This document shows, piece after piece, positions 5,433 through 56,885 of a stretch of DNA of 64,000 nucleotides. How positions within the stretch are numbered: the stretch's first letter is position 1; each line of letters opens with the position of its first letter. The position numbers and the translations under genes were made by a program. Source of the DNA: Rhizaria sp. SCN 62-66 (lineage: Eukaryota); assembly GCA_001724265.1 (NCBI GenBank), contig MEDY01000059.1:1-64000 (forward strand). Reading direction: 5' to 3'. Below the pieces are notes generated by a model. It worked only from the letters and a program-made list of their open reading frames with translations, did not search any database and was not told the origin of the DNA.

Positions 5433-5710
5433 AGAGGGCTAAGAAGTGCGCCCCAAGAGATGTAAAAAGAAAAGAAGTGCAATGAGCTTATGTTAATATC
5501 CAAAACGTCAATGAGAATGCTTCTATCGGATTGGTTAAAGCACACCAGGGTGTGTTTTAGCTCAAACAGAAACTGACTCTCCCCCGGCCGGTTCGCGAAA
5601 AATCGGGGGGTTGGCGAGGCTGAAAGTAGTAAAGGGCAAGGGAGTGGGGGGTGATGAGGGACATGGTTTTGAGAGACGGGTGTCGCACAGAGTGGCTACA
5701 CACTATTCTA

Positions 5711-7768: not shown

Positions 7769-8344
7769 GCGAGCAAGCAAGTACGCGAGTCAGCGAGCCT
7801 GCGGTGCAGGGTGTTTGGTGGATGGAGGAAAACAACAACAGAGGGCTCGGGCAAGGCGCGTGTGTCGCGCCGGTGCTTTGGGCTCAGACTGAGGGAAGGG
7901 CATTGTGGGCTCGCGGCGTCGCGCCGGAGCACCGCAACGAACTACTGCTGCGGGCGACGACTGCCAGTTAGTTATAGTTAGGATGGCGGTATATTAGGTT
8001 TGCAACGGGAGCAATCATACTACTGAGTTGAAAGTTAAAGTCATTCATATACGTCTATTTTTTTTTCGCAATGACTACTGATATAAATACAAACAAACAA
8101 AATTCAATACTCATGTGCCTCGAGATGTCATTTCTTTCAGACTTGACTTTGGTAGCAAGTATTTTATCCAAGTGTTAATTGCGTTTTTTATTCTTTTTGT
8201 TTCTTTTTACAAATAATACTTGTTATATTACACCACTTAAACAAAGCGTTCATTGCATTAATACTTTCTTGTTGTTGATACTTTCAATACGAAGGATGAC
8301 ACTCATTTCACATCAGCTTGCTGCTGGCCACGAACACTACCGGC

Positions 8345-9646: not shown

Positions 9647-10248
9647 CGGGGTCGGGGAAAGTGAGGAACGCGGGGGCGGAGGCCGGGCGTTGGGGTGTAG
9701 TCACAGAACAACCGAGAGGGGTTTGTGGCGGTTGGATCTCACTCGAACTGCACGCTAGGTTTAACGTGGCAAGCTCGAACTGAAGAAAATGCAAAAAGCG
9801 AAACTGTATCTATAGAACAAGATCTCCTCCAAAACAAAGGTAGATCGCTGTTTCACTGGACACAAGGCCGACAAAAGCCACGACAATTCCAGACCTCACT
9901 GTGATCAAACCAAGTCGAAGCGATCGATCGAGCTAGTGTCTGCAGGCTCCAAAACTGATTTGTGGTCAGCTGGAAAGTTAGGCCGGCGATCGGACGACCC
10001 AGAGCCAGAGACAGAGGCCAAAAGGAGCAAATTTCAAAGCGCTGTATCTCGGTCCATTTTCGTCAAAGCTACTCATAGATCATTTATGGAACAGTTACCA
10101 TCTGGAAGTATCATTGAATTCTTTCACAAAGCCACAAACTCATGTTTACCCTTCCGTTTCTGTTGTGCTTTCTCTCGCCTCATCGCCTTGCTTTTAACCC
10201 TTTCATCCCCACTCTCGTCTTGTTGTTTTCCAGTGTGTGACGCCACCA

Positions 10249-12117
10249 ATGAGGCTCGCCGCTCACCTTGTGGGCGCAGTCGCTTTGGCGGTTGCCGCGT
10301 TCGCACCCGGCGCACTTGCTCTGCAGGTCGGCGGCGCGTCGCTCGCGGCGCAGCGAGGCGCGGGGGCCCACTCCCTGCAGCCCTCGTCTTCGTCGCCGTC
10401 TCTGCTTGAGCTGTCGCAGGAGCAGAGCGCGGACCTCTCTGCCGAGCAGTCTGTGTCGCACAGCACGCTTTCGGTTGAGTTATTGCACGACGAGCTCTCG
10501 CCGTCCCGCGCGGGCGCCTTCGTGGCGTCCCTCCGCGACGCGCAGCGCCTGCCCCGCGGCGGCCACAGCAGCCTGCTCGAGGTCGACGACGCCAACAACA
10601 CCACCGCCCCCGCGGGCGCCGCCCCCGCCGGCGTCCCAGTCTTTGGCTACGGCATTCCGCTGCACCAGGAGGTGCTGCGCAACCGGCACATCGCGTCCTA
10701 CTACGGTCTTGTGACCGTGGGCGGCCACGAGTTCCGCGTCATGTTCGACACGGGCTCCTGCGAGTTCTGGATCCCGTCGACGCAGTGCACGTCCCAGCGC
10801 TGCATGCGCCACCGCCGCTATCCGGTCGAGACGCTGCCGCGCTTTAAGGCCGCCGCCGACTCGGACGCCGTTGTCGCCACGGGCGCGCGGTTCGCGCAGG
10901 CGCAGCTCAACATCTCGTACATCTCCGGCCGCGTTACGGGCCCGATGGTGCATGACCGCGTGGCCGTGGGCCCGATCGTGATCCCGGACCAGATGGTCGG
11001 CGTGGCGCGCACCGTGGACGTGAACCTGCTCGACGACGTCGTGTGGGACGGCATCATGGGCCTCGCGTTCCCGCACCGCTCCGTGCTCGCGCGCGGCGTC
11101 ATCCCCGTGTTCGAAAACATCATGAACAAGAACGTGCTCACCGAGCGCGGGCTGCGCAACCAGTTTGCGTACCACGTCGGCGGCAAGGGCGGCTCCTTCA
11201 CGCTTGGCGGTGCCGACTGCTCCGCCGTGCGCGCCGCGCCGGGCCCCGAGTGCTTCAATAAGTTCGCCTTCGCACCTGTGTCGCGGCCCGAGTACTGGAC
11301 CGTGGACCTGGAGGACGTCTGGGCCACAATGCCCGACGGCACCGTCAAGAAGGACCTCTGCGGCGGCTCGGGCCGCCCCGGGCGCCCCGCCGCCTGCCGC
11401 GCCATCGTCGACACGGGCACCTACCTCGTCTACGGGCCCAGCAACACGGTGCGCCAGGTGCTGCCCGCCGTCTTCGCGCGCTGCCACGACCAGGGGCTGC
11501 TGCCTAAGCTCACCTTCCGCGTCAAGACGGGCCCGCGCAGCGCGCCGCTGGAGCTGACGATCGCGCCCGAGGACTACGTGCTCAAGTTCAACGTCGACGA
11601 CGCCGCAGCCGCTAAGGCCGCGCCGCCCGCGCCCGGCGCACCGCTGCCGACCAAGGAGGAGTGCGTGCTGGGCGTGGCGCCGGACCGCGACGCGACGTGG
11701 ACGCTGGGCCAGGTCTTCCTGCGCTCGTACTACGCGCTGTTTGACCGCGAGCACCAGCGCATTGGCTTCGCGCGGCTCCCTGGCACCGAGTTCAAGCCCA
11801 TCGCGCTGACCGAGGTCGCCACCGAGGTCGCCGCCAAGGCGCAGATCACCACCGCCGTCGAGACCGAGGCCGAGACCGAGGTTGACGCTGAGGCTGAGAC
11901 CGAGGTTGACGCTGAGGCTGAGGCTGAGGCTGAGGCTGAGACTGAGGTTGATGCTGAGGCTGAGGAGGAGCAGGAGCAGGAGGAGGAGGGCGAGGCTTAC
12001 ACCGAGGCCGAGGCCGAGACTGAGACTGAGCATGAGACGGAGGCCGAGAACGAGTCGGAGGTGGATGCGGAGGCTGAGGCTGAGACCGAGGTTGAGTCTG
12101 AGACGTCGGAGGAGTAA
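10249..12117 (+). CDS. Secreted pepsin-family (A1) aspartic protease with an acidic C-terminal tail
   Basis: Signal peptide followed by YYGLVTVG, catalytic FDTGSCEFW and IVDTGTYL, DGIMGLAFP, and WTLGQVFLRSYYALFD...IGFA. Ends TAA. Confidence 0.94.
   Translation: MRLAAHLVGAVALAVAAFAPGALALQVGGASLAAQRGAGAHSLQPSSSSPSLLELSQEQSADLSAEQSVSHSTLSVELLHDELSPSRAGAFVASLRDAQRLPRGGHSSLLEVDDANNTTAPAGAAPAGVPVFGYGIPLHQEVLRNRHIASYYGLVTVGGHEFRVMFDTGSCEFWIPSTQCTSQRCMRHRRYPVETLPRFKAAADSDAVVATGARFAQAQLNISYISGRVTGPMVHDRVAVGPIVIPDQMVGVARTVDVNLLDDVVWDGIMGLAFPHRSVLARGVIPVFENIMNKNVLTERGLRNQFAYHVGGKGGSFTLGGADCSAVRAAPGPECFNKFAFAPVSRPEYWTVDLEDVWATMPDGTVKKDLCGGSGRPGRPAACRAIVDTGTYLVYGPSNTVRQVLPAVFARCHDQGLLPKLTFRVKTGPRSAPLELTIAPEDYVLKFNVDDAAAAKAAPPAPGAPLPTKEECVLGVAPDRDATWTLGQVFLRSYYALFDREHQRIGFARLPGTEFKPIALTEVATEVAAKAQITTAVETEAETEVDAEAETEVDAEAEAEAEAETEVDAEAEEEQEQEEEGEAYTEAEAETETEHETEAENESEVDAEAEAETEVESETSEE
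11860..12114 (+). repeat. Coding low-complexity repeat (ETEAE/TEVDAEAE units)
   Basis: Repeated gaggctgag and accgaggttgacgctgaggct units. Confidence 0.85.
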
Positions 12118-16812: not shown

Positions 16813-19800
16813 TCACTCACGAGCGCGCGCGCGCGTGCGCACACCCTGATAGTCCGCAGCCTGAGTCGATTGCTGCTGCTGCTGTGCCTGGACGGGCGCG
16901 GGAGCGGCAGCGGCAGGAGCCGGAGCCGCGGCGGGCGCGGCGTCGGCGTTGGAGCCGGCGGCGGGCGGCGCGGTCATGATCTGGCGCGCGTACTTCATGC
17001 GCTTGTGCAGGTCGGGGCGCGGGACGGCGAAGACGTCGGCGAAGGCGTAGGCCTTGCGCTCCTTAAGCTTGTCGGTGTAGGCGACGACGCATGTGTCGGT
17101 GGAGAGCACGAGCTCGGTCTCGTCGAAGAAGATGAACTGCGACACGCGCGACGACAGGCGGAAGACCATGGCGTGCTCAGTGCGGCACCACGAGCGCACG
17201 TGCGGCATCACGACGGCAGCGTCGAACGGCGAGCAGTAGTCGAGGTAGTCGGGCGCGCCGGGCTGAGGCGCCGAGGACTTGTTCTGCTGGACGAGGTACT
17301 TCATAAAGTGGTGCAGCAGCGTGACCTTCTTCTGCAGGTCCGCGGGGTAGTCGTTGAGGCGGAAGTTCTGCACGTCGAAGCCCGACTGGCCGGGCGCGGC
17401 TTTCTTGGTGATGTACTGCACGTCAGCGCCGTTGGGGTGCAGCACGATCTTGGTGTAGTCGTTGAAGTGGACGCCGCAGGAGCCGTCGCTGAGGAGGTAG
17501 CCCAGCCCGTACTTGTTCGAGTAGTCGACCCAGAGGTTAACCCACAGTGACGGCGCCACAGGCTCCGCGCCCGGCGCGCACACGCCGGACGCCACCACCG
17601 CGGGCGCGGGCTCGGCGCCGGCCTCGGAGACCGCTGCGGGCGACGCCGCCGCGGTCACGAAACCGCTCGAACCCGAGCCCGAGGCGGCGCCAGAGCCAGC
17701 GCCGGAGTGGGCCGCCGAGAGGGCGCCCGAGCTAGCCACGGAGCCGGCGGCCGAGTGCGCGGGGGAGCCCAGCGCGGAGCTGGCGTAGCCGCTGCCGCTG
17801 CTGTTGGAGCCTGCGGGCGAGCCCAGCAGCGCAGCGTTGTTCACGTTGGCACTGTTCGCGGCGTTGCCGTTGCCGTTGACGGTGAGCGCGGACATGGCCT
17901 GCGTCATGGCCTCGATGGGGCACGCGCCGGGTTGGGGGCCCGCCGCGGTCGAGAACGCCTTGGCTGCGGTTGCGCCGTTGGCGTGGAGGTCAGCGGAGGG
18001 GTAAACCATCTTGCCGCCGGCGGGCGCGGGCGCGGCTGCGGGCACGTTGGTCACGCTCGCGGGCACGGCCGCGAACGGCTGCGGGCGCGCCGCGGGCGCA
18101 GCAGCGGCGGCGGCGGCGGCAGCGGACGCGGCAGCCGAGGCGGAGGACTTCGGCGCTGCGGACTGGGGGCGCAGCAGCGCAGCGGGCGCGGCGTTCTCCT
18201 TGCTGTACGACTGCGGCTGCGGCTGCGGCTGGCTGTAGGCGTTGGCGGTGGGCACGGCGAGCAGGTGCGGGTTGCTGTTGGCCGCAGCCGGAGCAGGAGT
18301 AGCAGCAGCGGCGGCGGCGGCGCCGGTGTCGATGGCGGGCGCGGGCGACGAGGCCTCGCCGAGCGGCTCCACGACGGCGGGCTCAAACGGGAGGACCTCG
18401 GCGGCGACGGCGCTGACGGCGTCGCGCGTCATCACGAAGTGGCGCGGGAAGCCCTGCGTGCGCGCGAACTCGTACAGCGCGCCGCCCGGGTGCAGGCGGT
18501 GCGCGTACGCCAGCGGCGCGTCGGCCGTGGCCGCGGGCAGGCACGCCGGGAAGGGCGACTGTGTGAAAAAGGGGTGCATGCGCAGGTCCGTCAGCGAGGG
18601 CCGCTTGGCGGGGTCCGGGTGTAGGATAGAGCTGATGAAGTCCTTGGCGGCCGGCGTCACGTACACCGAGTCGGGGAACGTGTAGACGTTGTTGCGGATG
18701 CGCTCGTAGGTGGTCTTGACCGAAGCCGTCTCAAACGGCGGGCGGCCGAAGAGCAGCGTGAAGGCGATGACACCGATAGCCCAGGTGTCGACCTCGAACG
18801 AGTGGCCCGCGTTGCGGTCCGCGATCACCTCCGGCGCGATGTAGTTGGGCGTGCCGCAGATGGTCTTCTTGCGCTCCTCGGGGTGGTCCACACGCGTCGC
18901 CAGCCCGAAGTCGCCGACCTTGATTTCCATGTTCTGCGACAGGAAGAGGTTGCCCAGCTTGAGGTCGCGGTGGATGATGCTGCTCTGGTGCAGCGAGTGC
19001 ACCACGTTCACCAGCTGGAACAGGTAGCACTGCGCCTCCGTCTCCGTCAGGTTCTTGCGCCGCTTCACCAGCTCCATCAGCGTCTGCTGCGTGCACAGCT
19101 CGAGCAGGATCACGATGTTCTCGGGGTCCTCGAAGTAGCGCTCAAAGCGCACCACGTTGGGGTGCTTCACTGAGCGGTGGATGCGGATCTCGTTCTGCAG
19201 CTTCTTGCGCGCCGAGTTCGACTGCAGCGACGCCTTCGGGATCACCTTGCCCGCGTACACGCGGCCCGTATCGAACGAAGTCAAGTGGTAGCACCGCGCG
19301 AAACCACCCTGTGCGCGGTGCGAGTCGTTAGTGGTTCGGAAGACAAGTAAAGAATGGAGGAGATGAGAAATTGATGTGATGTTAAGATCGATTAAAGTTA
19401 AATTTGAATATGGTGAACCTGAAGCGCGTTTAAACGGATTCAACAAACTTGAGTCCAGTAACACTCGAATATCTAGTTGTGGGAAGTGTTATAAAAGAGA
19501 AGATTGACGTACGCGGCCGATGCACTTGCCGGTCTTGTAGCGCTTGATGCCGCAGCCAACGCGGAGGAGCGATTTGTCCTCAATCACGTCGGGCACGTTC
19601 ACCTGTGGGCGCTGCGAGGACGCCTGCGCCGCGGCGCCGTTGGCGCCGGCGGGCGCAACGCCGTTGGCGGGAGCGGGCGCCACGGGCGCAGGCGCGGGGG
19701 CGTGCTGGTGGTGGTGCTGCTGGACGTTGGCGGTCGAAGTGGGGTAGAGGTGTGACGCCACGCGCTGCTGCTGTTGCTGCTGCTGGTAGAGCTGCTGCTG

Positions 19801-20019
19801 CTGTTGCTGCTGCTGCGCGATAGCCTGCGCCTGGGCCTGCGCGGCGGCGGCGGAGGACGCGGCGTACGGGTTGCTGTTGTAGTTAGCGTAAGGGTTCTGC
19901 TGAAGGTGGTGCGCGGGCGCGGCGGAAGGTGCGGCAGCGGTGGGCACACCGTAAGGGTAACCCACAACCTGGGGCTGCACGGGCTTGGCGCCGTAGCCGT
20001 AGGAGACGCCGTGCGACAT
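16813..20019 (-). CDS. PLK: Polo-like kinase; exons 19513-20019 and 16813-19308
   Basis: The glycine loop CIGR|GGFARC is restored by removing the GTACGT...CAG intron (19309-19512). Also YAGK, HRDLKLGN, DFG, ICGTPNYIAPE and the polo box WVNLWVDYSNKYGLGY. Ends TGA. Confidence 0.97.
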
Positions 20020-20244
20020 TGGAATCGGGCAGCGGGTGACGCGGGGACGCAACGACAAGACTGCTCCTCGACGGAAGGGTGTAGTTGGGACAGGAAACGG
20101 ACAAAAACAAGCAAAGGGCTCGGAAACCGGAGTGGTTGCAGAGGGTCTAGTGTGCGCGCAGTATGAAAATAAGAGGGCAGAGTGAGATGAGATCATTCAG
20201 ACAGGAAACAGCGTCGGGGAAGAAGGAGTCTAGGGGCAAGACTG

Positions 20245-20684: not shown

Positions 20685-23600
20685 ATGTCTGACCCAAGCT
20701 CTCGGGCGGCTGCCTCTTACGTCAGTCCCCCAGCATCAGCACCACAGTTTTTTGACCCCTTTGCGCCACTTGCCCGCCCCAAGGGTGTGCCGCAGTTTCC
20801 TTCCGCTCTAGCCTTGTCCTTCGCGCCCCAGGCCGTTTCAACCTCGACTGCGGCCGGATCTGCTTTGGCGCCCTTGACGCCCGCGCCGTCTGCGCCGCCG
20901 CCGCCGTCGCTGCTGGTGCGCTCCGATTACCGCATCGGCGTGCCGGTTGTTGCGCGCGCGTTGGCCCGGTCTGGCGCGCTCAGCGCCGCCGCGGCCGCCG
21001 ACGCCGCCGACGGGCTGCTGTATCACCTCGAGGGCCTGCAGTCGCCCGCCGCCGCTGTCGCCGGCGCCGCGCTCGCGCAAACGCTTGTCACGCTGCGCCG
21101 CGCCGCCCTTCCTGCACCTGCCAGCGCGTCTGTATTTTTTGGCGACGCCAGCGCGGGCGCGGCGGCGTTTTTGCTGCTGTTCCGCTGCGCGGGGGCTGGA
21201 GAGGCGGCGGCCATCGTGAGCACCAACCCCGCTCTCGCGCCCGCCTGCGCCGCCGCAGTCGCCGCCGCAGTCGCTGCACGCGATGTGACGCAACAGGCGC
21301 GCGTTGCGGCGGCTGCGCGGCGGCAGCGTGTGCCCGCGGTGGTCCGGGTTGTGCTGGAGCTGCTCACATACGCTCTGTCGCGAAACCTCGCCATTTACAG
21401 TAGCACGAACACCAACAGCTGCAGCTCTGCCGCCTCTGTCGGCGCGGGCGGGGCGCTGGGTGCGCTGTCGGCGGCGGAGGCGGCGGCGTTGGTGTCGCCC
21501 GCGCTGGCCACGCTGCTGCTGCGCGTTGCGGCCGGCGACTGCGGCTGGGCTCCGGCCGCCGCAACTGCCAGCGCAACCCCAGCGGGCATCAGCACAGGTG
21601 CGAGCGTAGGCGGCGTTGGCGCGCGTGGCGGAAGCGACGACGCGACCGTTGCCGGCATGACAGTCGCTGATGCCATGAAGGTAAATGCGGGTGATGCAAC
21701 GCCCGACAACGCGTCTGCCACAGCTGCTCTTGCTGGGGTCCGTGTAGGCGAACACGATGACAGCGCTGGCGCTGGCGCTGGCGAGGTGCGCAGTCGTCGG
21801 CGCCGCCGCCCCGCGGCCGCTGCTCCGGCTGCTGCACTGGCCGACGCCACGCCTGATGTTGACGCGAGTCTCACTGGCGGCGAGCGAGGCGATGGCCAAC
21901 GACGGCAGCCGCAGCCACAGTCAGAGTCTGAGCCGTTGTCGGAATCCCAGTCGCAGGCGCACTTGCAGTCGCAGTCGTTCACGCTGCCGTTGCCGTTGCC
22001 GCTGCCGCTGCCGCTACCACTGCAGCAGGAGCAGGAGCAGGCGCGCGAGGCGCCGTCGCTGCTGCTGCTGTGCTCCCTGCTCGCCGACACCGAGGCCGAC
22101 ACTGAGGCTGAGGCGAAGGATGAGGCCGACGTCGCCGTCACGGACGGAGACACTGACGGGGCTGCAGCGTCTGGAGTGACTGTAACTGCTCTCATGGCCC
22201 CATTTAGCAACTGCGATCACGTCCACGCTCACGACCCCATCGAGAGCGACAGAGACAGCGACTGCGCCTGCGAGCTGGCGCAGAGCCGTCTGCTGGCGCT
22301 GCTGCTGCTGGCGCGTTTGTTCGAGTTGTCGCCCGCCGCCGCCGCCGCGCCCGCCGCGCTGGCGTCTCTTGCGCTCCCCTTGCCGCGCGCACGCATATCT
22401 GCACACCGGACTGGCGACGCGGGTAGCAGGTCCGCCGGCGGTGTCGCAGGCGCAGCTGCTTCGACGGTGGCGCCCGCGGCGGCGGTCGTTTTAGGAATAG
22501 TCGATGCCGCAGTCACTGACGTTGCCGCACGCCTATTTCCCGCGCACGCGTCTAAGAACCTCGCATATTAGTGCTCTCCGTCTGAGTCCTCCGCGCTGCG
22601 CGGGGCCGGCCGTTTGCCGCCGCTGCTGTCAGCGCTGTTGCGCGCGTCTGCGGCACTGGCAGGCACGTTCCTGAGCCCGCAGGCGGCGGTGGCGACGCTC
22701 ACGGCGCTCGACGACGACCCGGCCGTGACCGCCGCCGCCGCCGCCGCAGTCGTCGCTGCCGCCGCGGTCGCCACAGGGGCGCGCTCGCGGTGCTCCGCGC
22801 TCGCGACTGCGCGCAGCGGCGCAGGGGCGAGCGCCGGTGACGGCGAGAGCGCGACTGTGACGGCGAGGGAGGACTCAAACAACGAGAATGCGTCCACTGC
22901 GCTGTCACATAACAGCAGCAGCAGCAGAGGCGTTTCTGGATATGTGCTGAACGTCGCTGCCACCGGTGGTGTCGACAGAGGCGCGATCACGCGCGCACTG
23001 CTTGCCGTGACCACGCCCCTGTCGCTCACGCCAACGGTTGCGCAGTCAGCGAGTCACCCAACTGCTGTTGAATCGATCCCCGCAGAGGCATTTGCAGAGG
23101 CTGAGTCGCGGCAATTCCGCGCCGAGCTGGCCGCCGCGGCCCAGAGCCCCGCCGCGGCGAGTCTGTCGTCGCCCGCCGCAGCCGCCGTGGACGTGCCCGC
23201 GGTGGCCGAGGAGGCGTGCTTCCGCGTGCTCGTGCGCGGAATCGCCGTTTCTACCGCCGCGCTCTCCGCTGCTGTGGCACTACACCGGCAGCAACGACTG
23301 CAGCAACCGGCGAGTTCACCGTTCTGCAGCAGCAGCCGCCCGTGCTGCTGCGCGCTGCCCGTGGGCCTGGTGCCGTTCGCGCGGCAGCAGCTGCTGGTGT
23401 GTCTGGACCTCTCGCACCGAAACCCGCTCGCCGCGCAGGCCCTCGCGTCGCGCGCGCGCCTCACGCCGCTTGCCGACTCCGCACCCAGCGCCTCGACTGC
23501 CGCCGCGACCGCCGCCGCGACCGCTGCAAGGACTGGCGACGACGAGAGTGACGGAGCAGCGCTGACTGGGCTTGGCGTCGTCGCGAGTCTGTACGCTCTC

Positions 23601-25088
23601 TCGCGTGCTGCGACAGCAATGACTGCGCACAATGCGCGTGTCAATACGACCGCAGATCATTCCGACAGCGGTGCCGAGGGCGCAGGTGCCGAGAGTATGC
23701 GCTGCGTCTGCTGCAGCGCACGGAGGAGTGGCGGTGACACGAGCTCGCACGCATGCGGCTTAGCTTCCCTCTCCGCGCTGGCGGCGCCCGCGCTGGGCGT
23801 GCTGGTCAACTGCCTCGAGGCGGCACCGCAGCAGACGGCGGCTGCGGTTGCCGCGCTGCGCTGCCGGGTGACCCTGAGCAGCACGGGTCCCAGAGGCTCC
23901 GAGAGCAGCGACACGGGGAGTGCTCAGCTTGACAACGCGTGCGTCGGCGCTGCATTGGATACAGCGAGTTCTGATGCCAGTGCGGGTGACGCTAGTGGTA
24001 CAGAGGATATTTTTTCGCTCATGTTTGCCGCAGCCGCGACCGACGACACGGCGAGCGCCGACACCAGCGGCAGCTCTGCAGCGACCCTGAGCAGCGCCCC
24101 CAAGACAGTGAGCCGGACCGAGACCCTGGGCGCGCCGCTTTGGCTGCTGCTGTGGCACTAGTTTGCGGCCGACTACGCTCTGTACAAGCGCGCCGTCTCT
24201 CTGCTCTCGCGGCCACCGCCACAGGCCCAGCCACAGCCGCAGTCGATGTCACACCCGCAGCCGCAATCTCTCGGCGGTTTGAGCTTAGACTCCAGTTCCA
24301 GGTTGCAGTCGCAGTCTCACTCTAACGGGCTCACGCAGACGCTATTTTCCCCTGCACAGTCGCTCTCGCCGCTGCCGTCTCTGCTCTCGACGACGGCGAC
24401 CCTGGCGCCGGCCGCGCGCGCAGCCGCCGACTGCGCGAGCAGAGATTAGTCTCTCTTTGGAGAGACTGTGGCAGTGAGCGACGGCCGCTGCACTGACGTG
24501 GCCACGACAACCGGCGAGACCACGACAACCGGCGAGACCACGACAATTGACGAGACCGCAACTCATGCCACGACTGCTGCTGACGCCACGAGGGCTGCTG
24601 AGACTGCCGCGGTGCGCGGGGCGACGGCGGCGCAGTTGCGCGCGGGCTACAGCGCGATCATGCTCTCGTGGCTTGCCGTGTCGCGGCCCGGCTTCCTGGA
24701 CGTGCTCGAACACGTCGCAGCCACGGCCAGTAGCATCATCGGCAACTGTACTATCGCCGGGGCCACTGGTGACACTGCGACCGAGAGCGCGGCTGCGAGC
24801 GCGACCGTGGGCGCCGGGGAGCGGCTCGCGGAGGCGCTGGGCGACTACGTGGCGATGCAAACGCGCTCTGCCGCGACTGCGACCGCGACTGGGGCCGCGA
24901 ATGCTACTGCGACGTCAGGCGCGGCTGGTCATGGTGAAGGCTCGAGCAACAGCGTCGCTGTCTCACACAGCGCCAGCGCCATTGCAAGCGGGGCTGCGGC
25001 CGAGGGCGGGGGTAGCGAGGAGGCCGAGGGGCTGCGCAGGCAGCTGTTGCGGGCGGTGCGGCGCCGGCAGCTGCTCAAGCTTGAGTGA
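20685..25088 (+). CDS. WAPL-like cohesin release factor, 1467 aa, read through three in-frame TAG codons (22569, 24159, 24447)
   Basis: The four listed ORFs starting at 20652, 22614, 24246 and 24468 share one frame and are separated only by TAG. WAPL-like motifs occur in the expected order: CLDLSHRNP, LGVLVNCLE, LLWH*F, GYSAIMLSWL, LAEALGDYVAMQ (assignment from recalled motifs). Ends TGA. Confidence 0.7.
24501..24558 (+). repeat. 18-bp coding tandem repeat (TTTGET units)
   Basis: ccacgacaaccggcgaga twice plus a degenerate third copy. Confidence 0.8.
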
Positions 25089-26135: not shown

Positions 26136-26835
26136 GGTGTCTGTGTGCGGGAGGGCGAGAAGCGCCGGGATGGGGCTCTCGCGGGTGTTAAAGTCGGGCT
26201 GGGGACAGCGGAACGGGGCTGGCGCGGGATAAGATTCTGCGACAGAATAGCCGACTCGCGTTTAAGATGTGTGGTAAGAGAGAGAACTGCACTAATGGAA
26301 AGCGGGGGTGACAGGAGCAAGAGAGCGAGTGGGTGGTGAGAAGGGGGCGGACTGGGGCGAGGCGAGGAAACCGGGGCTCGGCTGGAGACAAAGAGTGCGA
26401 CAGGAAGCCACACTAAAAGAAGAGAATTAATATCAAGTGGCAGAACGCATGAATTCGAGGATTTTAACAACGTTTATGGTCATAGTATCAACTTTGAGCT
26501 CCTCTCCGAGGATGCAACTCGAGGTTCGCCCACGGTCGCTTGCAGCCTCGACCGCCCAACCAACCAGCCACGCCTTCGGTCGATGATGGCAGAGATAGCC
26601 TGTCTTAAAGGACTTTGTGTGAGATAGTTCTTTCGTCAGCGGCGATATAGACGAACTATCGTGTTTATTGTCTGGTTTATTTCACTGCCTTAAATTTACT
26701 TTTGCTTTTGTGTTGGTCTCACCATTCCACTGTTTGTTTCGTACTTTCAGACTTGACTCAACTTCATCCGAGACTAGCACGCGCCCACCATCACTGGGCC
26801 TTGAAACAGAGCTCTTTTCACTACTCATTTCACAC

Positions 26836-29800
26836 ATGCCACGGGCTTCCCCGGGCACCGCCGGCTCTCCGTCGTCTGCTCGGCGCAGCGATGGCTCTGG
26901 CGCCCCCGCGGCTCCTCCCGTCGGAGCTCCAGATTCGTCCCTCGCTTCTGCCTCCGCCTCCGCCCCCGCGGCCCCTGCTGCCCCGGGCGCGTCAACAGCG
27001 ACGAAGCTGGCCCACGTAGAGGCGCTCGAGGCCTCTTTGCTGGTCCCGCTTCACCGCGCGGCCGCAGCGTCGTTGTTCTTGCCGTCCTCGACGCTCGCGC
27101 CCGCGCCGTTCCCGCCGTACGTGGTGACCGCGCTGTCCTTCGTGCACGGCGCGCTCTCGGCCGCGCCCGCCGCGCTGCTGCTCTTCGCCGCCGTCGCCGC
27201 GACCGCGGGCGCATGGCCCGACGCCGTGGCCTCCCCGTCGCCCGCGCGCTCGTTCTTGGCCGCCGCGGCGACGCCCTCGGCCGTGGCGCTGTGGCTCACT
27301 GCGCTGGCCCTCGTCGCCGCGGGCTCAGCGCTCGGACCCGCGCTCGCCGAGTGGGTTGCGCGTGCATACGTCGCCGCACACTCGCCCGCCGCGCACTCGT
27401 CCGTTGCGCTCGACGCCGCAGCTGAGACCGCGCCTGCGACTATGATTGCGGGCGACTACCACGGCGGTCGCCGCCGTCGCGGCCGTCGCCAGACTGCTGC
27501 TGTCTCCGCGGCTGACGGGCCCGAGTCGGCGGCCAGGGCCCGCAGCAGCTCGGCCTGGGCCTACCCCACCGCGCCCGCGCCGCGCCCGCCCGCCGCTACC
27601 TCAACCGCTGCCGCCGCCGCCGCCGCCGCCGCCGCTGCGACCGCAGCCGCTGCCGCAGCTGCGACTGCTGTCCGCGACACCGGGCTTGGCGGGCTCGGGC
27701 TCGACGTCGCGCGGCACGCCGCCGCGCCCGGCAGCGGCCGGGGCCTGGGCGAGGGCGACCCGCTTGCGTTTTCGCCCTACGCGGGCCCCACACACGGCCA
27801 GAGGCTGTCTGCGGGCGCTGCGGCGATTACGAGCGCGGGCGACCTCAGCTCTCGCGCCCAGGCCCTCGAGGACGAAGATGAGGACGAGGATGGCTACAGC
27901 GTCAGCGGCGGCGACAGCGAGCAGGACTATGGCGACCGCGAGCGGCTGCTCTTGGCGCACTCGCACAGCGCCGCCAGCGCCGGTCTGAGCCGCAGCCACA
28001 GCCGCGGCCACTTCGACCGTGCGGCTGCTGCTGCGGCGGCGGCTGACGACGATGAGGACGACGACGCCGACTCCGTCTACGCGGCCGGCGTGACCGCGGC
28101 TGCGCCCGGCGCCGCGGGCGCGGACGACGCGGACGAGGACACCGCGTTTACGATCGTGAGCCGCTCGCGCGCAAACACGCACGCCCGCGGCCATAGCAGC
28201 GGCAGCGGCAGCGGCCACGGTCACGGCCACGGCCACGCGCAGGGCGACGGCGAGGGCGCCGTCGTGTCGGCGCTCTCGCCGCTGCTGTCCGCGCGCAGCG
28301 CCAGCTCCGCTTCAGCGACTGCGACTGCGCTGTCACCGCTGCACTCCGGCGTGGGCTTCGGCGCCAGTCCCGGCGCGGCCAGCGCCAGGGGCGGCCAAGG
28401 CCTGAGCTACGGCTCCACGGACTCCCTGTCTGCGCCCAGCCAGTCCAACAACGCAAGAGCGAACGCGAGCGCGACCAATGCGAGCACCGGCGGCAGCGGC
28501 AGCAGCAATAGCGTGATCGTCAAGGCGCCCGCGTCGCTGCCCCTGCGCGCGACGCGGTTTGTTGCGGGTGTGCTGGCCGCGGCCGCCGTGATCGGGCTCG
28601 CGCTCGCCACGGGCGCGCTCTACTTCGCCAGCGAGCTCCATGTGCAGGCGCTGCGCGAGGCCGCCGCGGGAGTCGAGTGGGCGCGTCCCCCGCCCATGTA
28701 CTATGGCCAAGAGCGCAGCTTCGGCGACATCCTGTTCGCCGACATCGATGCGCCGCCGCCGCAGCCGCTCGCGCTCTCCCGCGCGGCTCTCGGCGCCGGC
28801 AAGAGCGCCGGCGCCGTGCCCGCGCTGTTCGACTTCGCCGCCCTCGTGGGCGACGGCGCGGGCGACGCGGGCGCAGGCGGCGCCAAGGGCGGCCCCGGCG
28901 GCAAGTCTCCGTTCGGTGGGCTGGCAGGCTCGGCGGGCGGACTGAGCTCGGCAGCCGCGCTGCTGCCCACGTCGCCCGCGGCGGCCGCGCGCACGCTGGG
29001 CCGCGTGCTGGTCCCGCCGCGCTCGCTGCCGCTGCTCAGCCGCAGCCACAGCTTCAGCGACTTCGATGATGACGACAGCGACCTCGACGCCAGCGCGAGC
29101 GGCGCCGCGGTTGCTAGCGGTGGCGAGCAGTGGGTCTGGCTGGGCGTGGCGTCGCCGCTGTGGACGTCGCTGTACCAGCCGCTGCTGCTGCTGCTCGCGG
29201 CGCTGGGCGCGGCGCTCGTCACGGCCGCCGTCTCGGGCGCCGCGCACGCCGCCGCAGTCACGTGCGCGCAGGCCGGCGCCCAGGCGCCCATCGCACCGCT
29301 CGAGCTCGCGCCTGCTCCCGCCGCCGCGCACGCCGCCGCCGCCGCCGCTGCTGCAGCCGCTGCGGCCGACGCCACCACTGGTGGTGCCGCTGCGAACACG
29401 GCGCCGCGTGTGTCGATTTGCCTGTCGCCGCTCTCGCACGCGCACTCGCTGCACAGCCCCGCGCTCGCGCCCCTGGCCCCCGGTAACAGTGGTGCCGGCG
29501 CCGCTGGCGCTGCCTCGGGTGCAGGTGCAGGCGCAGGCGCCGGTGCGCTGGTGCTGTCGCCCGTGACGGGCCCGCTGTCGCACAGCCACTCGGCGACCTC
29601 GCTCTCTGCGCACAGCCACGGCCACGGCCACGGCCACGGCCACGGCGGCGGCGGCCACAGCGGCGGCCACAGCGGCTATCTGTTGCCGCGCCCGTCGCCG
29701 GCTTTCGGCCCAACGGCCTTCACCATCTCTGGCTCCTCAGCCTTAGCCTCCGGCGCTAGCGCCGCGCCTCCCGGCGCGGGCGGCGCCGGCGTGATGGGCG

Positions 29801-32800
29801 GCGGCGTGCGGCTGGGCATGTACCACGGCGCCGCGCACGGCCACTCCTCCAGCGCTCAAAGCCACAGCAGCGGCAACGGCAAGCAGCTGTCTTTCCTGCC
29901 TGAGCAAGACGAGTCCGCTCCTGACGACGCCGAGCTCAACGACAACGCCGCCGTCGCAACCGCGCCCGTCGCTTTCTCTGCGTCGTCGGCGTCGTCCTCG
30001 TTGCCTTCGCGTGCCGACGCCGCCACGGCCGCTGCGGCCGCGCAGGCGGCCGCGGACAGCGCGGCCGCGAGCGAGGTGCTGCTGGCGCCGCTGCCGCCCG
30101 AGCCCGGGGACGCGTACATCGCGTCCTCGCTGCTGCTCGACGCGCTCGTGCACCGTCAGTTCGCCGCCGCCGCGCCGCTCCGGGCCTGCGGCGGCGACGT
30201 CACCGCGGCCCGCGGCGCCGACGCCTTGGTGGCCGTCGAGTGTGACCACGGCGTGCTGCTGCCTCTCGCCGCAACGCACCGCGCGCTGCTGCGCCAGCGC
30301 GGCGGGCCGCTGTCCGCCGCGGCCGCGCGCAGCACCGTCCCCGCGCCGCCGGCCCCCGCCTCCGTCCACAGCCACGGCTACCGTCACGGCGGCAGGGCCA
30401 GCAAGGCTGCGGGCGCCGCCGTGCGCGCGTCGCTGCTGCGCGCGTTCCCGCTGGGCGTGGCCTTCTCGCTGCTCGCGCTGCCCGTCGTGTACGCGCTGCT
30501 GCTGCGCTCGGCGGGCCACGCGGTCGCCGTGCGCGCCGCGCAACTGCTGCGCGGGGACATCTTGCCCTCGGGCGCGCCCTCGCCCGCCGCGCTCGCCGCC
30601 GCCGCCGCCGCCGCCACGGCCGCGGAGACCACGCTGGCTGAGTCCAGCGGCGGCGGCGCCCACGGCGCGGCATCGTCGCCGGGCTTCGTGTCGCTGTTCA
30701 ACATCCACTCTGCGATCCCCGCCGCGTCCTCGGCCTCGGCGGCCTCGGCGTCGCTCGCGCTCCCGCTGCCGCCACCCGCGTCGGCCGCCGCGCTGGCGAA
30801 GCTCTTCCTGGTTTCGTCGCCCGCGGCGGCGGCGCCCGTGGTTGCTCACGGCGTGCTCGCGCGCGCGCTGCTGTCGGTCGCCGCGGGCGTGCTGACCGCG
30901 GCTGCGCTCACGCTCGTGCTGCTGCTCGTGTGGGCGCACAGCGAGTTGCGCTACCACTCGTCGCGCTACTATGCCGCGCTTACCGTCGTGGAGCCTACCG
31001 CCGCCGCGGCGACGACGCAGACGCCGTCCTCGCATTCGCAGTCCCGTTTGCGGTCTGCGCGCTCGGGCAAGGGCGGCGCTGCGAAGTCTGCGCGCGCGGG
31101 CGGCAAGCGCGTATCGCTCTCGGTCGGCGACGCGCGCTCGCAGTCGCCGCCAGAGCTGTCCTCGAGCCGGTCGCTGCTGGCCGCGCCCGCCGCCGGCGCC
31201 AGCTTCGTTGCCGGGGCGGGCGCGACGTCCCCCGCCCTTGTGCCGCTGCCGCTGCCGCTGTCGGGGTCGCCCGCGGGCGCGGACGCGCTGAGCAAGGCCG
31301 GCGGCGCCGCGGGCGCGCTGCCGCCGCTGCTGCACAGTGCGCCGCGGACGCGGCTGCGCGCATGGGCGCCGCTGCCGCTGCTGCAGTCGGCGCTGGCTGC
31401 GGCCGCGCACCTGCTGTTCCTGCTGCTGCCCGCGGCGCTGACGCTGCTGCTGGGGCTGTCGCCGGTGTTCGAGGCGCCGCTGGTGGCGCTCGCGGCCGCG
31501 CTCGTGTGGGGGTTGGTTACCTCGCTGCCCTCCGCAGTGCGCGTGTACCGCAACGCCGACGACGGCGGCGACGCCGAGGCCGACGCGGACCCTGTGTCGG
31601 AGCCTGAGTTCGACGACCCCTACGCCTACACCGCCGGCGCGAACCACCGCGTCGTCCACCGGCCCCGCTCGCGCGGGCAGCCGAGGAGCGCGTGGTCCGT
31701 GCGCGGCTTTGCGCGCTCCGTGCGGGACACGTTCGCCCCTCCCGTCACCGCCGTTGCGCCGCGCAGCGCGCACGCGCACTCCCGCGGCCGCGGCGACGCC
31801 GGCAACGGCGACGGCGACCGCGAGGGTGTGAGCGTGTGGTCCGTCGAGCGTCTCAGCGCCGCCGCGCGTGTGACGGCCAAGACCGCGCTCGCTGTGTCTA
31901 CTGCGGCCACCGCGACCGCCGCCGACAGCGCCGACTGCCAGGGCAGCCAGGCGGGGGCACTGCCCGTCGCCGTCGCGCTCGCCGTGATGGAGGCCGAGAC
32001 CGCGTCGCTCATCGCGGACGCCTACTCCAGCGCCGCGAGCACTCCGACTGCCGCTGGCGCTGACAGCGTCAATAACAACATCGTTGCGGTTTCCTCTGCT
32101 GGCGAGGCGAAGCCCGCTGCGCATGGTCACTCGACCGCCGCTGCAGCTTCGACTACTGCCGCCGCGCCCGCGTCTGGCGCCGCCCTGGCGCGCTCGACGC
32201 GTCGGCTTCTGCTGCTGCTCACCGTCTCGCTGTCGTGGCTTCTGGTGCTCGCGCTGGCCCGCGGCGTGCCGGGCCTGTACAACCACTCCTCGGCCGCGGC
32301 CAGCGCGAGCAGCGCCAACGCCGCGGGCGCGGACATGGGCGCGAGCTGGGCCGCCGCGTTCGGGGGCGCGGCGACGCCGCAGTCTGCCCAGCCACCGGCG
32401 CACAGCAAGGGCAAGGACAGCGAGGGCGTCGGCGCGCGCCTGTCGTCGGGCCTCTGGGCCGTGGCGTCGTTCGTCATCACGCTGCTGTCGCCTACCCCGC
32501 CGCGCACGCTGCACCCGCTGCCGCTGCCGCTCTCCGTTTTCCGCGGCGACTCATCTCCCGCCGCCGGCACTGGCGCGGGCGCGGGCGCAGGCGGCGCACC
32601 GCCGGGCGTCGCCGCGCTGCTGCCGCTACTGACCGGCGCCGGGCTGTCTTCGTTCTCCGCCGCGACGACGGCGGCGACGGCGGCCGCGCACGAGTCCTCC
32701 GCGGTCTACACCGCGCTGGCCGTCGTTCTCGTGCTGCTGGCGGCCGCCGCGCTCGCGGGGCTATCGCGCGTGGCCGCCGTCGCGCTCTGGCAGGGGCAGA

Positions 32801-35800
32801 CGCGCCTCGCCGTCGCGCGCGCGCTGCTGGCCCGCCTCGTCTCGGACCACTACGCCGACGTCGTCACCGGTGTCGCCGCCGAGAGCGGCATCGGCGCTTA
32901 TGTCGACACTGCAGTTGCTGAGAGCAAGGGCGCGCAGGGCTACGGCGCTGTCGCGATCTCCGTGCCTGGTTACACGGCTGCTGCGACCGCCCCCATCGTT
33001 GCGCGGCCGTCGCGGCTGTCGCAGATGCTGCGGCTCCCGCTGCTCCGCCGTCTCTTCACACCGCGCTCGCTGACGTCGACCTCGGCCGCCTCTGCCGCGG
33101 CCGCGATCACGCTCGCCGTCGTCGCTGCCTTTGCTGCTGGCTGCATGCACTTGATTTGCCTTTACGCGCGCTACCCGTCCCACGCTAGTTCTTCCGCGGC
33201 GACCACCCACACCGTGCTTGCCTCCTCTGATGATGACGACGCTACCCAGGCTCAGTTTGCGTCTTTTGCCTCCACCTTCGCGCCCGCCAACGGCAACGGG
33301 AGCGCCGACAGCAGCAAGAGCGGCAAGGCGAGTTTGGGCGACCTCGTCGTCGACGTGGGGCTGCTCACCGTGCACCTGGCGTCGGCGCAGCTGCTGTGGC
33401 CAGTGCTCGCCGCTGTGGCCGTGCTCGCCGCGCTCGTCCCCGCACTCGCCGCCGTCGCGCTCGCGCGCGGGCTCGGCCGCAGCGGCGCGCGCAACGACGG
33501 CTGCGGCGAAGAGGACCACCACGACGGCGCGTACAAGCCGCGCGCGCGCGTGCTGAGCAGCCACCGCCGCGAGGCCGAGCCCGCCGCCGACGAGGACCAC
33601 TACCGCAACAGCTACCAGTCCCCAAGCATGAGCACCGGCGAGCCCGTGTGTGTCGTGGGCGCTGCGAAGCCGCTCGCGTTGTCTGTGCTGCCCAAGGCGG
33701 CTGCGCCGGCGGACGCGCGCCCGGGCTTCGCGCCGCTGGCGCCGGTGCGCGCCTTTTGGCGCGCGCTGTCACAGCCGCCACTGCTGGGCGGCACGCACCC
33801 GCGCTCCGGCGCGTTCATGTTCTCGCTCGCTGACCTCGCCGCGCTCGCGCAGAGCGACGGCGTCGCCGCCGAGGCCGCGCCCGCGATCGCCGCCGCGGCC
33901 AGCAGTAACGTCATCGCGCGCGCGGGCACCGTGTTCACGGTGCCGCCGCCGTCGCCGGCCGTGCTCGAGGCCACTGTGTCCGCGACGGGTGGCCTGGCTT
34001 CTGTGTACCACGCGGCCTACATTCCGCACACTGTGCACAGCACCACTGTCGCCGTTGCAGCCGCTGCGGCTTCCTTGGGCACGGATGCCGCTCATGATGC
34101 GAGCGTATCCGTCGACGCCGACGTGCACAGCTCCAGCCTGAGTCTTACCGCGAGTCTGAGCAGCTGGGTGCTGAGCCCCACGGTCCCGGTCTCGCAGCCC
34201 GCGTCGTCGGCGGCCTCCACGGTCTCCGCCGCGCCCGCAGTGCCCGCGGTCACTGCCCGCGCGCTTGCCACTGTCGGTGCGGAGCTCTTGCCCTGGGCTG
34301 CGCTTCCCGGCGTCACTGTCGTCGCTGCAACTAGCTCGGCTGACGCAAGCACTGTCGTCGGTGGTTTGGCCGGACTGCCGCTGTCCGCGGCCGCTGTTGA
34401 GTGGCTGTGGTCGCGCTTGCCGCCCGCCTCCGCCGCCGCCGCCGCGGCCTCGGGCAGCTCGCGCGGCGGGGCATCGATGCTCGCGTTGGGCGCGCCGGGC
34501 AGCAGCAGCGCGGCGGCGCGCACTCGCACCGCCGCCAACGTTGCTGCGGCTACGGCCGCGCTGACTCGCGCCCCGACCGCCGCCGTGGCCGCCGCGACCC
34601 TGCTCGCCCCGGTGTCCGCCTCGGTGTCTGTGCCGGCGGTCGCCTCGTCTCTTGCGGGCGAGGCCGCCGCGTCGCGCGACGAGGACGCGGCCGACGCTGA
34701 CGCGATCACGGTCTCGGCGCGCGACGTCGCCTACGCGCGACTCCGCGGCGCCGACTGCGTGGGCGAGGCCGCAGCCGCAGTGGCGAGCTCGCGCCCGCTC
34801 TGGCTCGTCGGCGCCGGTGTCGGCGCGCTGTGGTTCGCTGCGCGCCAGCTCGGTGACGCTGCGCGCGCCGCCGCGGCCGCTGCAGCGTCGGCCACGAGCT
34901 CCGTCGTTGCGACACCTGTTGCCGTCAATAACAACGATGATGACGATGATGGCAATGATTGTGGCAATGGTGGTAAAGGTAGGGGCAACAAGAAGCACGG
35001 GTTTGACGGTGGGGACATGAGCAGCAGCGGTGACAACGACGAGTCTGACAACGACGATGACGCCAACGACGACGGCCGTGGTTCTGACCCCAACACCAGT
35101 AGACAGGCATCCTCGCGCATGCAGTCCTTGCGGGCCGCCGACACGGGTGCTCCGTTTGGCAGTGCTGAGAGCAACAAAGCTGCTGACGCGTCCGCCACGC
35201 TCACAGCGCTTATTGCCGACTCCGCCGTTTCCGGCGCGAGCACTGGCGCTGCTGCTGGACGTAGCTAGGCTGATGAGGACGAAGATGTGCCGAGTGACCT
35301 CGACTTATCGACGCACTTGCCTAACCCGAGCTTTGAGAACGCGAGCGGCGCCACTGCCGGCGCTGCCGCTGCCTCTGTTCAGATTCCAACGGCACATGAT
35401 GTCATCTCTTCCTTTACTTCCGCTGACTCGAACAATTAGTCTGCGCCCGCTGCGGTCTCTTCCATCGCTTCGATCGCGCTCCCGTAGCCGTCGGCTGCGC
35501 TTAAAACATCTGACGCTGTTCCTACAGCAAACAAGAACAACATTGGTACCGATGCCGCGTCCTCTTTCGAGCACGGTAACTCACTCGCTGTCTCTATCGG
35601 TGTCCGCGACTGCGCTGGCGACAGTGCTCGCGACAGCGCTCTTGGCAGCGGCACCAACACAGGCAACGGCGACGACGAGGAACAAGGTGACCGCTTCATG
35701 CCATCACCCTCGCACCTGCAATCGCATTCACATGCGTACTCGCGCGCGCACTCGCACGCCTACTCCCCGTCGGCGTCGCCGCGCTTCTCGCAATCACGCT

Positions 35801-37440
35801 CGTCGTCACACGCGCCGTCGCCGCGCATGTCGCCTTCGGGCGTGCGCCGCTCGGTGACCTCCATCGTCTACCAGCCTCCGCCCGCCGCGCTTGCGCTCGC
35901 CCCCTCTGCGTACGTCGCTCCTCCAAGTGCGAACCCCGCCTCGCGGACTGCGAGCGACGGGCAGCATCTGCAGCAGCAGCAACAGCCGACGTCGTCACGC
36001 TCATCTCAGACGCGGTCACAGTCGCCGACGAACTCGCAGAGCGATGACGGCGCTTCCCCTTCTCCCCTCACGACCCCGCGCCAGATGACTGCCAGCGGCG
36101 CTGTAGCGGGCGGCAGCGGGTCGCGCGCGGCGAGGCCGTTCCTGACGCCCGGACTGGCCCCGCGCACTGTGTCGGCCGCCTCGGCCGCGCGCGCGCACAC
36201 GCAACAACAGTCACAGTCTCGCTCGCCCTCGTCCTCCCCGCAGCAAGGCCACACGCACATAAACAACGCACGCGGTTCTGAAGTTCCTTCGCTGCTTGAG
36301 AATAACGACGACGTTAACCTGGCGTCCGAGCAAGAGCTCGAGCGTCCGCGCGGCCAGTCTGCGGTGTACGGCGCGGAGGGCCTCGACCAGCACTACAGCA
36401 GTAGAAGCGGCAGCGTTGTCGTCGGCGGCGGTGCGAATGGTAGAGTCGGACTGAACCATGGCCAGACTGGCTCGTACTCGTTGCAGCAGCTGCACCGCCG
36501 CCTGGTCACCGGCACTTCGTCCGCCTCGCGCTCGCCGCAGCCGCCGGCCAACTACGCGCGCGCCTTCACGCCCACCTCGGCCGACGCCGCCGCTGCGGCT
36601 GCAATCGCGGCAGCTCGCATTGTGCCTGCCGGCGCGGCCCCGCTGTCTGCGGCCGAGCTCATGGGCCTCGGCGCGGGCGCGACTGCGGGCACTGCGACGA
36701 TCGGCGCGGGCGGCCTTCCCCTGTATAACCGCTCTCACCGCGGGTCTGTGTCGGCCGTTACGAACCCTGCGCTGACTGCGCGGCTTGACTTCGATAACGA
36801 GTTCCCTGATGACGACGCCAACGACGCAGAGGTTGCCGCTGCTGTCGCCGCCGCGGTCGCCTCGGCGCGCGCCGCGGCCGCTGCTGCGCGCGCCGCTGGC
36901 GGTGAGAGCGACAGCCCGAGTCCGAGTCACAATTCGAGCAGCCACCGCGATGGTGACGGCGAGCGCAGCCAGTACAGCCCCAGCCGCAACAACGCCGCCA
37001 CTGGCGACGCAGGTTCAGAGGACCCTAATGCCGTGGTTACCGCGGGCGCGGGGCCGCGCGGCAGCATCTCCGGCCGCAGCCGCGCAGGCCGCAGCGTCGA
37101 CAGCCGCGCCGAGGCGGACGCCATGATGGCCGCGCGCCTGGGTCGGCTCTCACCCTCGGGCTCCGCCGCGGGCAGCGCGTGGAGCCTCTCGCTGAGCGAG
37201 GCGGAGGACCACCGCGTCTACGCAGCGAAGCAGCTTTTGCGCGCTGGCATTCAAGTTGCTAACACGCCCCTGCGCCCTCCCGGAGCGACTGGAGCTGGAG
37301 GTGAATCAACGGTGACGAGTCCGTCGACGGCAGCCGGGTACATCATGGCCATGGAAGATATTGCGCGTAAGCATGTGGGGTTCTCTCCTATCAAGCACGA
37401 AAAGCATCCTGAACAAGGACAGGAGTCACATCCTCAGTAA
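26836..37440 (+). CDS. Giant (3534 aa) Ala/Ser/Gly-rich multi-pass membrane protein of unknown function, read through three in-frame TAGs (35266, 35437, 35485)
   Basis: ORFs 26668-35268 and 35698-37440 are in the same frame. The linker translates as natural protein (ADEDEDVPSDLDLSTHLP...GDDEEQGDRF) with TAG as the only stop codon. Many long hydrophobic segments. Ends TAA. Confidence 0.75.
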
Positions 37441-54941: not shown

Positions 54942-55713
54942 GACGCGCAAGCGCGAGGAAGGCGAGTGCGGAACGGGGAAGTGGGCTGAAGATGTGGAAA
55001 CGCGCGGGAGGAGCTGCACGAGGGCCAGGGCAGCGGAAGACAGGAGAAGGTTCGGGTGAGCAAGTGGGCAGTGTGAGGACATAGTGGCTTTATCTGCCGA
55101 TGGAAAGGGGCGCGCAACTGCCATGGGACTGAACGCGGGGCATTTCATGGTGTGCAGAAGACTGTGGACGCATCTCGCGTCACGGGGAAGCACACTGACA
55201 GGGCAATGACGGGCAGTCAAAGGTATCTCCTGAGGGAGAGAGAGATCCTGTTACTTGCGAATACCACGTTGTAATTACACGCCCCACAAGTTACAGAAAA
55301 GGATCGAGGATTATACATACAGAAACCCTCAAGAAAACAATGGTCTTATACTTATACCGTCGTATAGGTGCTACTATATCAGTTCTTGGATTCTCCTGAC
55401 AAGGCCAGTAGCCAAGAATGGAGTAGGAGACTGTGAGCATTGGGCCTTATCTTGCACATCAAATATGTTTATACACGTAACGTCATCACACATATAATTG
55501 GGTAATCACTATTTAATTGTCACTAATCTATCATACTTCTTTATTGATTTGACAAAAACCTTTTGTGAAGGTCTGGGAACAGACATTCTCTTCCCACTAG
55601 GCTTGGTCGAAGCATAAGTTGAACGCCTAAGCTCGTCATCAGTCCCTGTCTAGTTTCCCCCGCGCGTCAACAGCGCGTTGTTTCGCGCTACTTTCTGCGC
55701 TATAACACCAAGA

Positions 55714-56851: not shown

Positions 56852-56885
<34 letters not shown>

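Follow-up and report, generated by a model that had tools for sequence, protein, structure and literature searches.

In the stretch analysed here (positions 1 to 64,000 of contig MEDY01000059.1 of Rhizaria sp. SCN 62-66; hereafter the window, 64 kb), we found an alanine-rich open reading frame (ORF), P0001, which runs on the forward strand (+) from an ATG to a TGA (20685-25088) and forms a single frame of 1,467 codons if the TAG codons within it are read through. It holds three of these, where an earlier note made from the letters alone had placed them: TAG1 (22569-22571, context TAT TAG TGC), TAG2 (24159-24161, CAC TAG TTT) and TAG3 (24447-24449, GAT TAG TCT). In the translation, with X written for TAG, they are residues 629, 1159 and 1255, and Ala, Ser and Leu account for 24%, 11% and 10% of the protein. 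TAG2 falls in a hydrophobic stretch, PLWLLLWH-X-FAADYALY, predicted to be helical by a low-confidence model (local pLDDT ~53). A GC-rich block coincides with the ORF from its ATG to the TGA at 25086, with GC of 0.6-0.8 inside and 0.33-0.5 flanking both ends; across the terminator (25086-25088, next base A) GC falls from 0.72 to 0.33, whereas there is no drop at TAG1 (0.66 in the 150 nt upstream, 0.75 in the 150 nt downstream).

The frame that follows TAG1 (22572-25085, 838 codons) contains no TAA, no TGA and only the two further TAGs, while the other five frames hold 7-18 TAA and TGA codons each. We scored codon usage as log-odds, trained on 7,544 codons from the conserved genes of the window, and the P0001 frame scored best in all four segments before, between and after the TAGs, with 0.09 upstream of TAG1 and 0.14, 0.04 and 0.14 downstream. 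The next in-frame ATG after TAG1 is 350 codons away, so a separate gene cannot start there. An antisense gene was rejected as the cause of the open frame, since the minus frames of 22572-25085 hold 7-11 TAA and TGA codons and match no family.

Introns covering the TAGs were rejected as well, since P0001 has neither a 5' splice consensus nor an AT-rich island at any TAG. None of the donors GTAYGT, GTGAGT and GTAAG occurs in P0001, and its 60-nt windows fall below 0.50 GC in one stretch only (~23940-23970, minimum 0.47), which coincides with no TAG. Around the TAGs (30 nt) GC is 0.54-0.65, compared to 0.35 and 0.41 in the two verified introns of the window.

Only one other gene of the window has in-frame TAGs, a larger orphan ORF of 3,590 codons (26668-37440, +) that ends in TAA-G, matches no family and carries TAGs at 35266, 35437 and 35485. 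Its own frame gave the best codon-usage score in all five segments tested, and a candidate intron over its TAGs (35261-35487) was rejected, being 227 nt long, not a multiple of three and of GC 0.6. Across both genes, the 150 nt after each of the six in-frame TAGs have GC of 0.57-0.75. A seventh TAG stands at the end of ORF 2210-3817 on the reverse strand (-), where TAG (2212-2210) is followed by eight sense codons and TAA-A (2185-2183; the whole end spans 2183-2212); outside P0001 and the larger orphan, this is the only ORF with TAG as its first stop.

Terminators and the sequence context of TAG

Across the window we counted 21 ORF ends, some of them from unverified ORFs (for example those at 650, 8347 (-), 12115, 25349 (-), 37438 and 63086). 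With TAG read through, the final stops are 10 TAA, 11 TGA and no TAG (P = 0.009 if TAG had a 20% share), a count that is circular unless C-termini are defined by orthologues and that cannot decide the matter alone. The surroundings of the two kinds of site are different: GC after the final TAA and TGA stops is at most 0.48 in 18 of 21 cases, against the higher values after the in-frame TAGs (Mann-Whitney p = 0.0007), and the base after the stop is a purine at 18/21 terminators but at only one of seven TAGs, that at 2212 included (Fisher p = 0.0014). Nine of the ten TAA stops are TAA-G and one is TAA-A, with a GC drop after nine. TAA as a second reassigned codon was rejected, since reading it through merged only the polo-kinase ORF of the window with an upstream low-complexity ORF, and TAA stops show the following purine and the GC drops. 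The in-frame TAGs lie outside introns in a coding signal that is continuous across them, in contrast to the real terminators of the window, and we infer that they are translated; for a full-length P0001 protein, the ribosome must pass three UAG codons.

The in-frame TAGs also share a local context. Three of the six are flanked by T on both sides (binomial p = 0.0002), or four of seven with the TAG at 2212, and three of these read ATTAGT; the sites are 22566-22574, 24444-24452 and 35434-35442 (+) and 2207-2215 (-). By comparison, T-TAG-T accounts for 3/62 out-of-frame TAGs in the same coding sequences, and the same flanks were found at no more than 17% for any other codon tested. T follows TAG in four of the six in-frame cases (binomial p = 0.0045, from codon-position base frequencies). 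This context is predicted neither by plain reassignment nor by random nonsense mutation; context-dependent decoding, a mutational hot spot and a process at the RNA level would each be consistent with it.

At the RNA level, a perfect 9-bp hairpin, UAGUCUCUC-UUUG-GAGAGACUG, begins at TAG3 (24447-24468, +). The 43-nt window around this codon is predicted to fold at -18.5 kcal/mol (z = -3.8), with none of 200 shuffles equally stable, while the other six TAG windows have z of -1.5 to +0.2. The A of TAG is in a predicted hairpin loop at two of the seven sites, and position +3 is A or G at two of seven.

The protein and the identity of the residue

P0001 stands alone in the databases searched. When residues 529-1467 were compared exhaustively by phmmer with 1.84 billion representative proteins, its own ORF was the sole match, present in the public protein set as a 490-residue entry that starts at a GTG and ends at TAG2. 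Word-indexed searches gave no match among proteins of near length and one, again the own ORF, among shorter ones. Within P0001 we found only low-complexity matches and no internal repeat or paralogue that would place a sense codon opposite a TAG. Its codon score, 0.11, lies inside the range of the other family-less genes of the window (-0.10 to 0.39), and by this measure P0001 shows no stronger decay than they do. The best explanation is that P0001 is one gene for a lineage-specific, Ala/Ser-rich protein of 1,467 residues that is not recognisably WAPL, and its product probably consists of helical segments (helical-repeat) joined by long disordered low-complexity linkers.

The comparison with WAPL, the cohesin-release factor, comes from the earlier note, which had proposed that a WAPL-like domain spans the TAGs, that a complete domain needs readthrough, and that leucine is the favoured meaning of UAG, with Gln not excluded. 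The readthrough part is supported for the ORF, by frame, codon usage and GC, but not for a domain. Four short motifs that had been quoted, CLDLSHRNP (23400-23426), LGVLVNCLE (23793-23819), GYSAIMLSWL (24645-24674) and LAEALGDYVAMQ (24825-24860), all on the forward strand, are present in that order, as is the TAG2 context LLWH-X-F (24147-24164). The remaining quoted TAG contexts exist too: GRS-X-ADE (35266), SNN-X-SAP (35437) and ALP-X-PSA (35485) in the larger orphan, and SLL-X-CM (2212, -). However, no WAPL was found in Pfam, among PDB sequences or among the listed ESM Atlas rows, and since the note itself had named the lack of a WAPL match as refuting its proposal, the domain claim fails. 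The Pfam library includes a WAPL model, and WAPL structures are present in the PDB.

Scanning P0001 with Pfam-A (hmmscan) gave no family for the whole protein at E≤0.01. For three large pieces, the halves included, FAM75 (E 7.6) was the single match at E≤10, and nine fragments covering all the quoted motifs returned no WAPL at the same threshold. The sole fragment match below E 0.01 was New_glue (7.5e-4), on an Ala/Ser/Gly-rich C-terminal fragment, which we take to be a composition effect. Fragments with CLDLSHRNP matched no family and no PDB sequence, those with LGVLVNCLE gave only chance-level matches (DUF7317, E 9.5; a short-chain oxidoreductase, E 0.094), and those with GYSAIMLSWL or LAEALGDYVAMQ gave no WAPL in Pfam or PDB searches. 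Against 177,635 distinct PDB sequences at E≤10, phmmer found no match for the whole protein and 0, 3 and 1 for three fragments, all of them unrelated enzymes at chance level and none WAPL.

Structure prediction was of little use here. The AlphaFold2 single-sequence model of 23301-25085 (mean pLDDT 42.2, pTM 0.26) was too poor to use, and the six PDB matches that Foldseek returned for it, all at E≥7.2 and none WAPL, are meaningless. The ESM Atlas models of the two halves had pLDDT of 0.42 and 0.36. Their nearest feature neighbours in the Atlas were ARM/HEAT/TPR-type solenoid clusters, including DUF3689 (PF12463; 0.90 and 0.85), which we take to mark TRPC4AP-type proteins, and Arm_4, RME-8_N, RICTOR_M, Nup192 and TPR_SYO1 (0.84-0.88), with a top cluster lacking a family name at 0.91. 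According to the Atlas itself, 4-10% of shuffled proteins attain scores up to 0.91, and those below 0.9 are leads only; none of these solenoid families was found by hmmscan at E≤10, and WAPL is not among the rows listed for either half.

The C-terminal domain of WAPL is an elongated HEAT-repeat fold, of the helical repeat class, and its N-terminus carries PDS5-binding FGF/YSR motifs. P0001 resembles WAPL/Wpl1 in being large, in its predicted helical segments and in the order of the four short hydrophobic motifs, but it has no statistical match at any threshold, and FGF, YSR, [FY]G[FY] and FxF are absent from all of its 1,467 residues. Without a homologue of P0001, no alignment column can be read at 24159 or at any other TAG, and the leucine assignment loses its basis; the helix argument built on LLWH-X-F depends on a supposed WAPL pattern. 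Of the seven TAG contexts, one is a hydrophobic helix, four are polar or disordered and two lie at boundaries. Leu, Gln and other residues are all compatible with the data of the window, and leucine taken by itself we consider improbable. Whichever reading of TAG holds, the WAPL label and the leucine assignment should not be passed on for P0001.

Nuclear codes that reassign UAG alone are known from a handful of lineages, with Leu in the rhizarian exLh and a phyllopharyngean ciliate clade and Gln in Iotanema spirale, Hartmannula sinica, Trochilia petrani and Protocruzia, so that Gln (four) outnumbers Leu (two), as given in the portions of PMC5304391 and PMC11687900 available. As far as these portions go, such codes resemble the window in that only UAG occurs in frame, UAA and UGA terminate and coding continues across UAG, and in exLh UAG is rarest in highly expressed genes, the same direction of skew as here (PMC5304391). 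However, UAG is common in those organisms, with 384 in 71 genes of exLh and 1,000-2,500 Pfam-aligned UAGs per MAG in the ciliates, and it stands at conserved Leu or Gln columns, whereas the window has six or seven in ~15,000 codons and none in a conserved gene. The T-TAG-T context has no counterpart in what these portions describe.

Competing readings of UAG

The reading we favour, though it could about equally well prove wrong, is that UAG is translated in this GC-rich eukaryote as a rare and avoided codon. UAG would then be an inefficient terminator, at which an amino acid is inserted, either because a cognate or near-cognate tRNA reads it or because eRF1 recognises it less well. Termination would be left to UAA and UGA, nearly always with a purine next, and only genes under weak constraint and with poor codon adaptation would tolerate UAG, mostly as U-UAG-U. 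A more specific version, which we regard as unlikely but worth stating, is an early stage of reappearance in a stop-to-sense change, in which UAG had been purged from terminators and conserved genes and was re-entering weakly constrained genes, decoded efficiently only in U-UAG-U. If this were true, codon capture would have been caught in progress, with a nuclear UAG codon of low usage that depends on its context and lies outside the ciliates.

Several observations weigh against translation, and some of them also favour its serious rival, a standard code under which P0001 and the larger orphan were inactivated or truncated not long ago, or are null alleles specific to the strain, and acquired nonsense substitutions that are all TAG because GC3-rich codons (CAG, GAG and TCG) reach it in one step. 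We consider this rival doubtful but far from negligible. In the 7,544 conserved codons, TAG is observed 0 times against 93 expected from position-specific base composition, as a true stop would be, and no ordinary sense codon is as skewed (TTG, 27 against 88; ATA, the most avoided, 1 against 9.9). Three other orphan genes have none against 14.8 expected, while P0001 has 3 against 11.2 and the larger orphan 3 against 29.4. All six in-frame TAGs are confined to two of ~20 genes, both of them orphans whose codon adaptation is weak and for which no homologue was detected, P0001 having no orthologue in either the exhaustive or the word-indexed searches. The three TAGs of the larger orphan fall within 73 of its 3,590 codons (p = 0.0014 if uniform), a cluster that coincides with the most AT3-rich internal stretch of that gene. 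TAG makes up 62-68% of the one-step nonsense mutations in these two genes, so that six out of six being TAG has p ~0.08 only, and under the standard code the first stops include three TAGs in 21, an ordinary share. Moreover, neither a tRNA with a CUA anticodon (ARAGORN, Rfam) nor an eRF1 gene was found within the window.

Decay fits less well with the state of the two genes, which show no frameshift and no TAA or TGA over 4.4 kb and 10.8 kb, and with the codon score of P0001, which after TAG1 is not below its upstream value. It also requires three hits in each of two adjacent large genes, and the excess of T after TAG and of T-TAG-T over codon-position base frequencies is at odds with it. If the TAGs are nonsense mutations after all, the locus is a case of ordinary gene decay.

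Correction in the mRNA, with UAG as a genomic stop edited from A to I (UAG to UIG, read as UGG, Trp), would account for frames interrupted by TAG and never by TAA or TGA, for the avoidance of TAG in housekeeping genes and for the non-random local context common to the sites. It has a fungal precedent: according to PMC11156358, ~70 genes with premature stops are rescued by A-to-I editing in Fusarium graminearum, by ADAT-type enzymes acting on adenosines after U, with a preference for hairpin loops and for A or G at +3. As in that ascomycete system, only a minority of genes is affected, and their ORFs are intact apart from the interrupting UAGs, but the sites of the window miss both preferences (two of seven each). 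Moreover, the organism is no filamentous ascomycete by the similarity of its malate dehydrogenase (MDH), whose best named relative, from Plasmodiophora, is 56% identical, and an inserted Trp would be unusual where the surroundings are disordered and acidic or polar, as in GRS-X-ADEDED and DSNN-X-SAP. We therefore give editing little credence.

The proposal that the C-terminal half of P0001 is a WAPL domain with UAG as leucine fares still worse and is very improbable. It can draw on the four motifs in their order, on the Atlas leads toward ARM/HEAT/TPR-type repeats, the class to which WAPL belongs, on the hydrophobic surroundings of TAG2, predicted as helix with low confidence, and on nuclear precedents for UAG as Leu (PMC5304391, PMC11687900). 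These are outweighed by the absence of WAPL from Pfam, four PDB sequence searches, the listed Atlas rows and Foldseek, by the missing FGF/YSR motifs, by the four of seven contexts that do not favour Leu, and by the contrast between the abundance of UAG in the rhizarian with that code and its absence from the conserved codons here. Equally hard to credit, and if anything harder, is the idea that the TAGs are true stops between independent small genes, or between a gene and a long 3' untranslated region (UTR), that share one frame by chance. The larger orphan does have an ATG at 35698 after its TAG cluster and a second forward frame that is stop-free from 35269 to 35697. However, P0001 has no such start for 350 codons, there is no AT-rich spacer such as most other gene boundaries in the window have, and the shared frame scores best in the supposed spacers (0.11 and 0.21), where the other five frames are negative.

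Translation of UAG remains our preferred account. If correct, it would be a further, independent case, in a GC-rich genome where UAG is used very sparsely, bearing on how stop codons are lost and recaptured, and standard gene callers would truncate proteins of this genome, as in the 490-residue public fragment. The openly accessible literature that we searched describes no eukaryote outside the ciliates that is GC-rich and has rare UAG codons in frame.

Other genes and features of the window

Coding regions of the window are very GC-rich (~0.6-0.8), while its intergenic regions and introns are AT-rich (~0.3-0.45). Both strands carry genes that belong to clear families, including an AAA ATPase, a polo-like kinase with two polo boxes, an animal-type haem peroxidase, an alpha/beta hydrolase, Utp11, an MPN/JAB protein and the MDH, which is of the cytosolic type; a further large protein has weak PAS-domain matches (E 0.002-0.006) below the Pfam cut-offs. 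None of the conserved genes has an in-frame TAG. Two pepsin-type aspartyl protease genes (2-652 and 10237-12117, +) lie less than 10 kb apart, and the first of them runs off the edge of the window. ARAGORN and Rfam detected a single RNA gene in the window, a tRNA-Pro with anticodon AGG (1242-1313, -). Relatives of the MDH are environmental sequences at 85-63% identity, well ahead of the named one, and a similarity so distant indicates a poorly sampled lineage.

Introns are few and AT-rich in the genes of the window. One, verified in the peroxidase gene (39652-39798, +; 147 nt, GC 0.35, GTACGT...CAG), is in frame without a stop and so reads as spurious protein; another, verified in the MPN gene (~9378 down to ~9190, -), also begins with GTACGT and has GC of 0.41. 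A TAG near 59790 (-), in a thioredoxin-like ORF (59349-59891, -), is probably a 3' splice site rather than a codon.

Three further regions were noted. In the polo-kinase region (16813-20196, -), a GC-rich low-complexity ORF of 236 codons (19489-20196) lies upstream in the same frame with one TAA (19488-19486) between them; it might represent an N-terminal exon of the kinase gene, its 5' leader or a gene of its own. One GC-rich block (55678-58970, +) contains two long ORFs in different frames, 55678-57621 and 56898-58970, with ~720 nt in common, which suggests a single gene with an unrecognised intron or frameshift. Lastly, ~200 nt past the TAA of ORF 5651-7768 (7769-7980, +) still have GC of 0.64, unlike most other 3' flanks, and may belong to a 3' UTR of high GC or to an exon that was missed; the stop overlaps GTAAGC.

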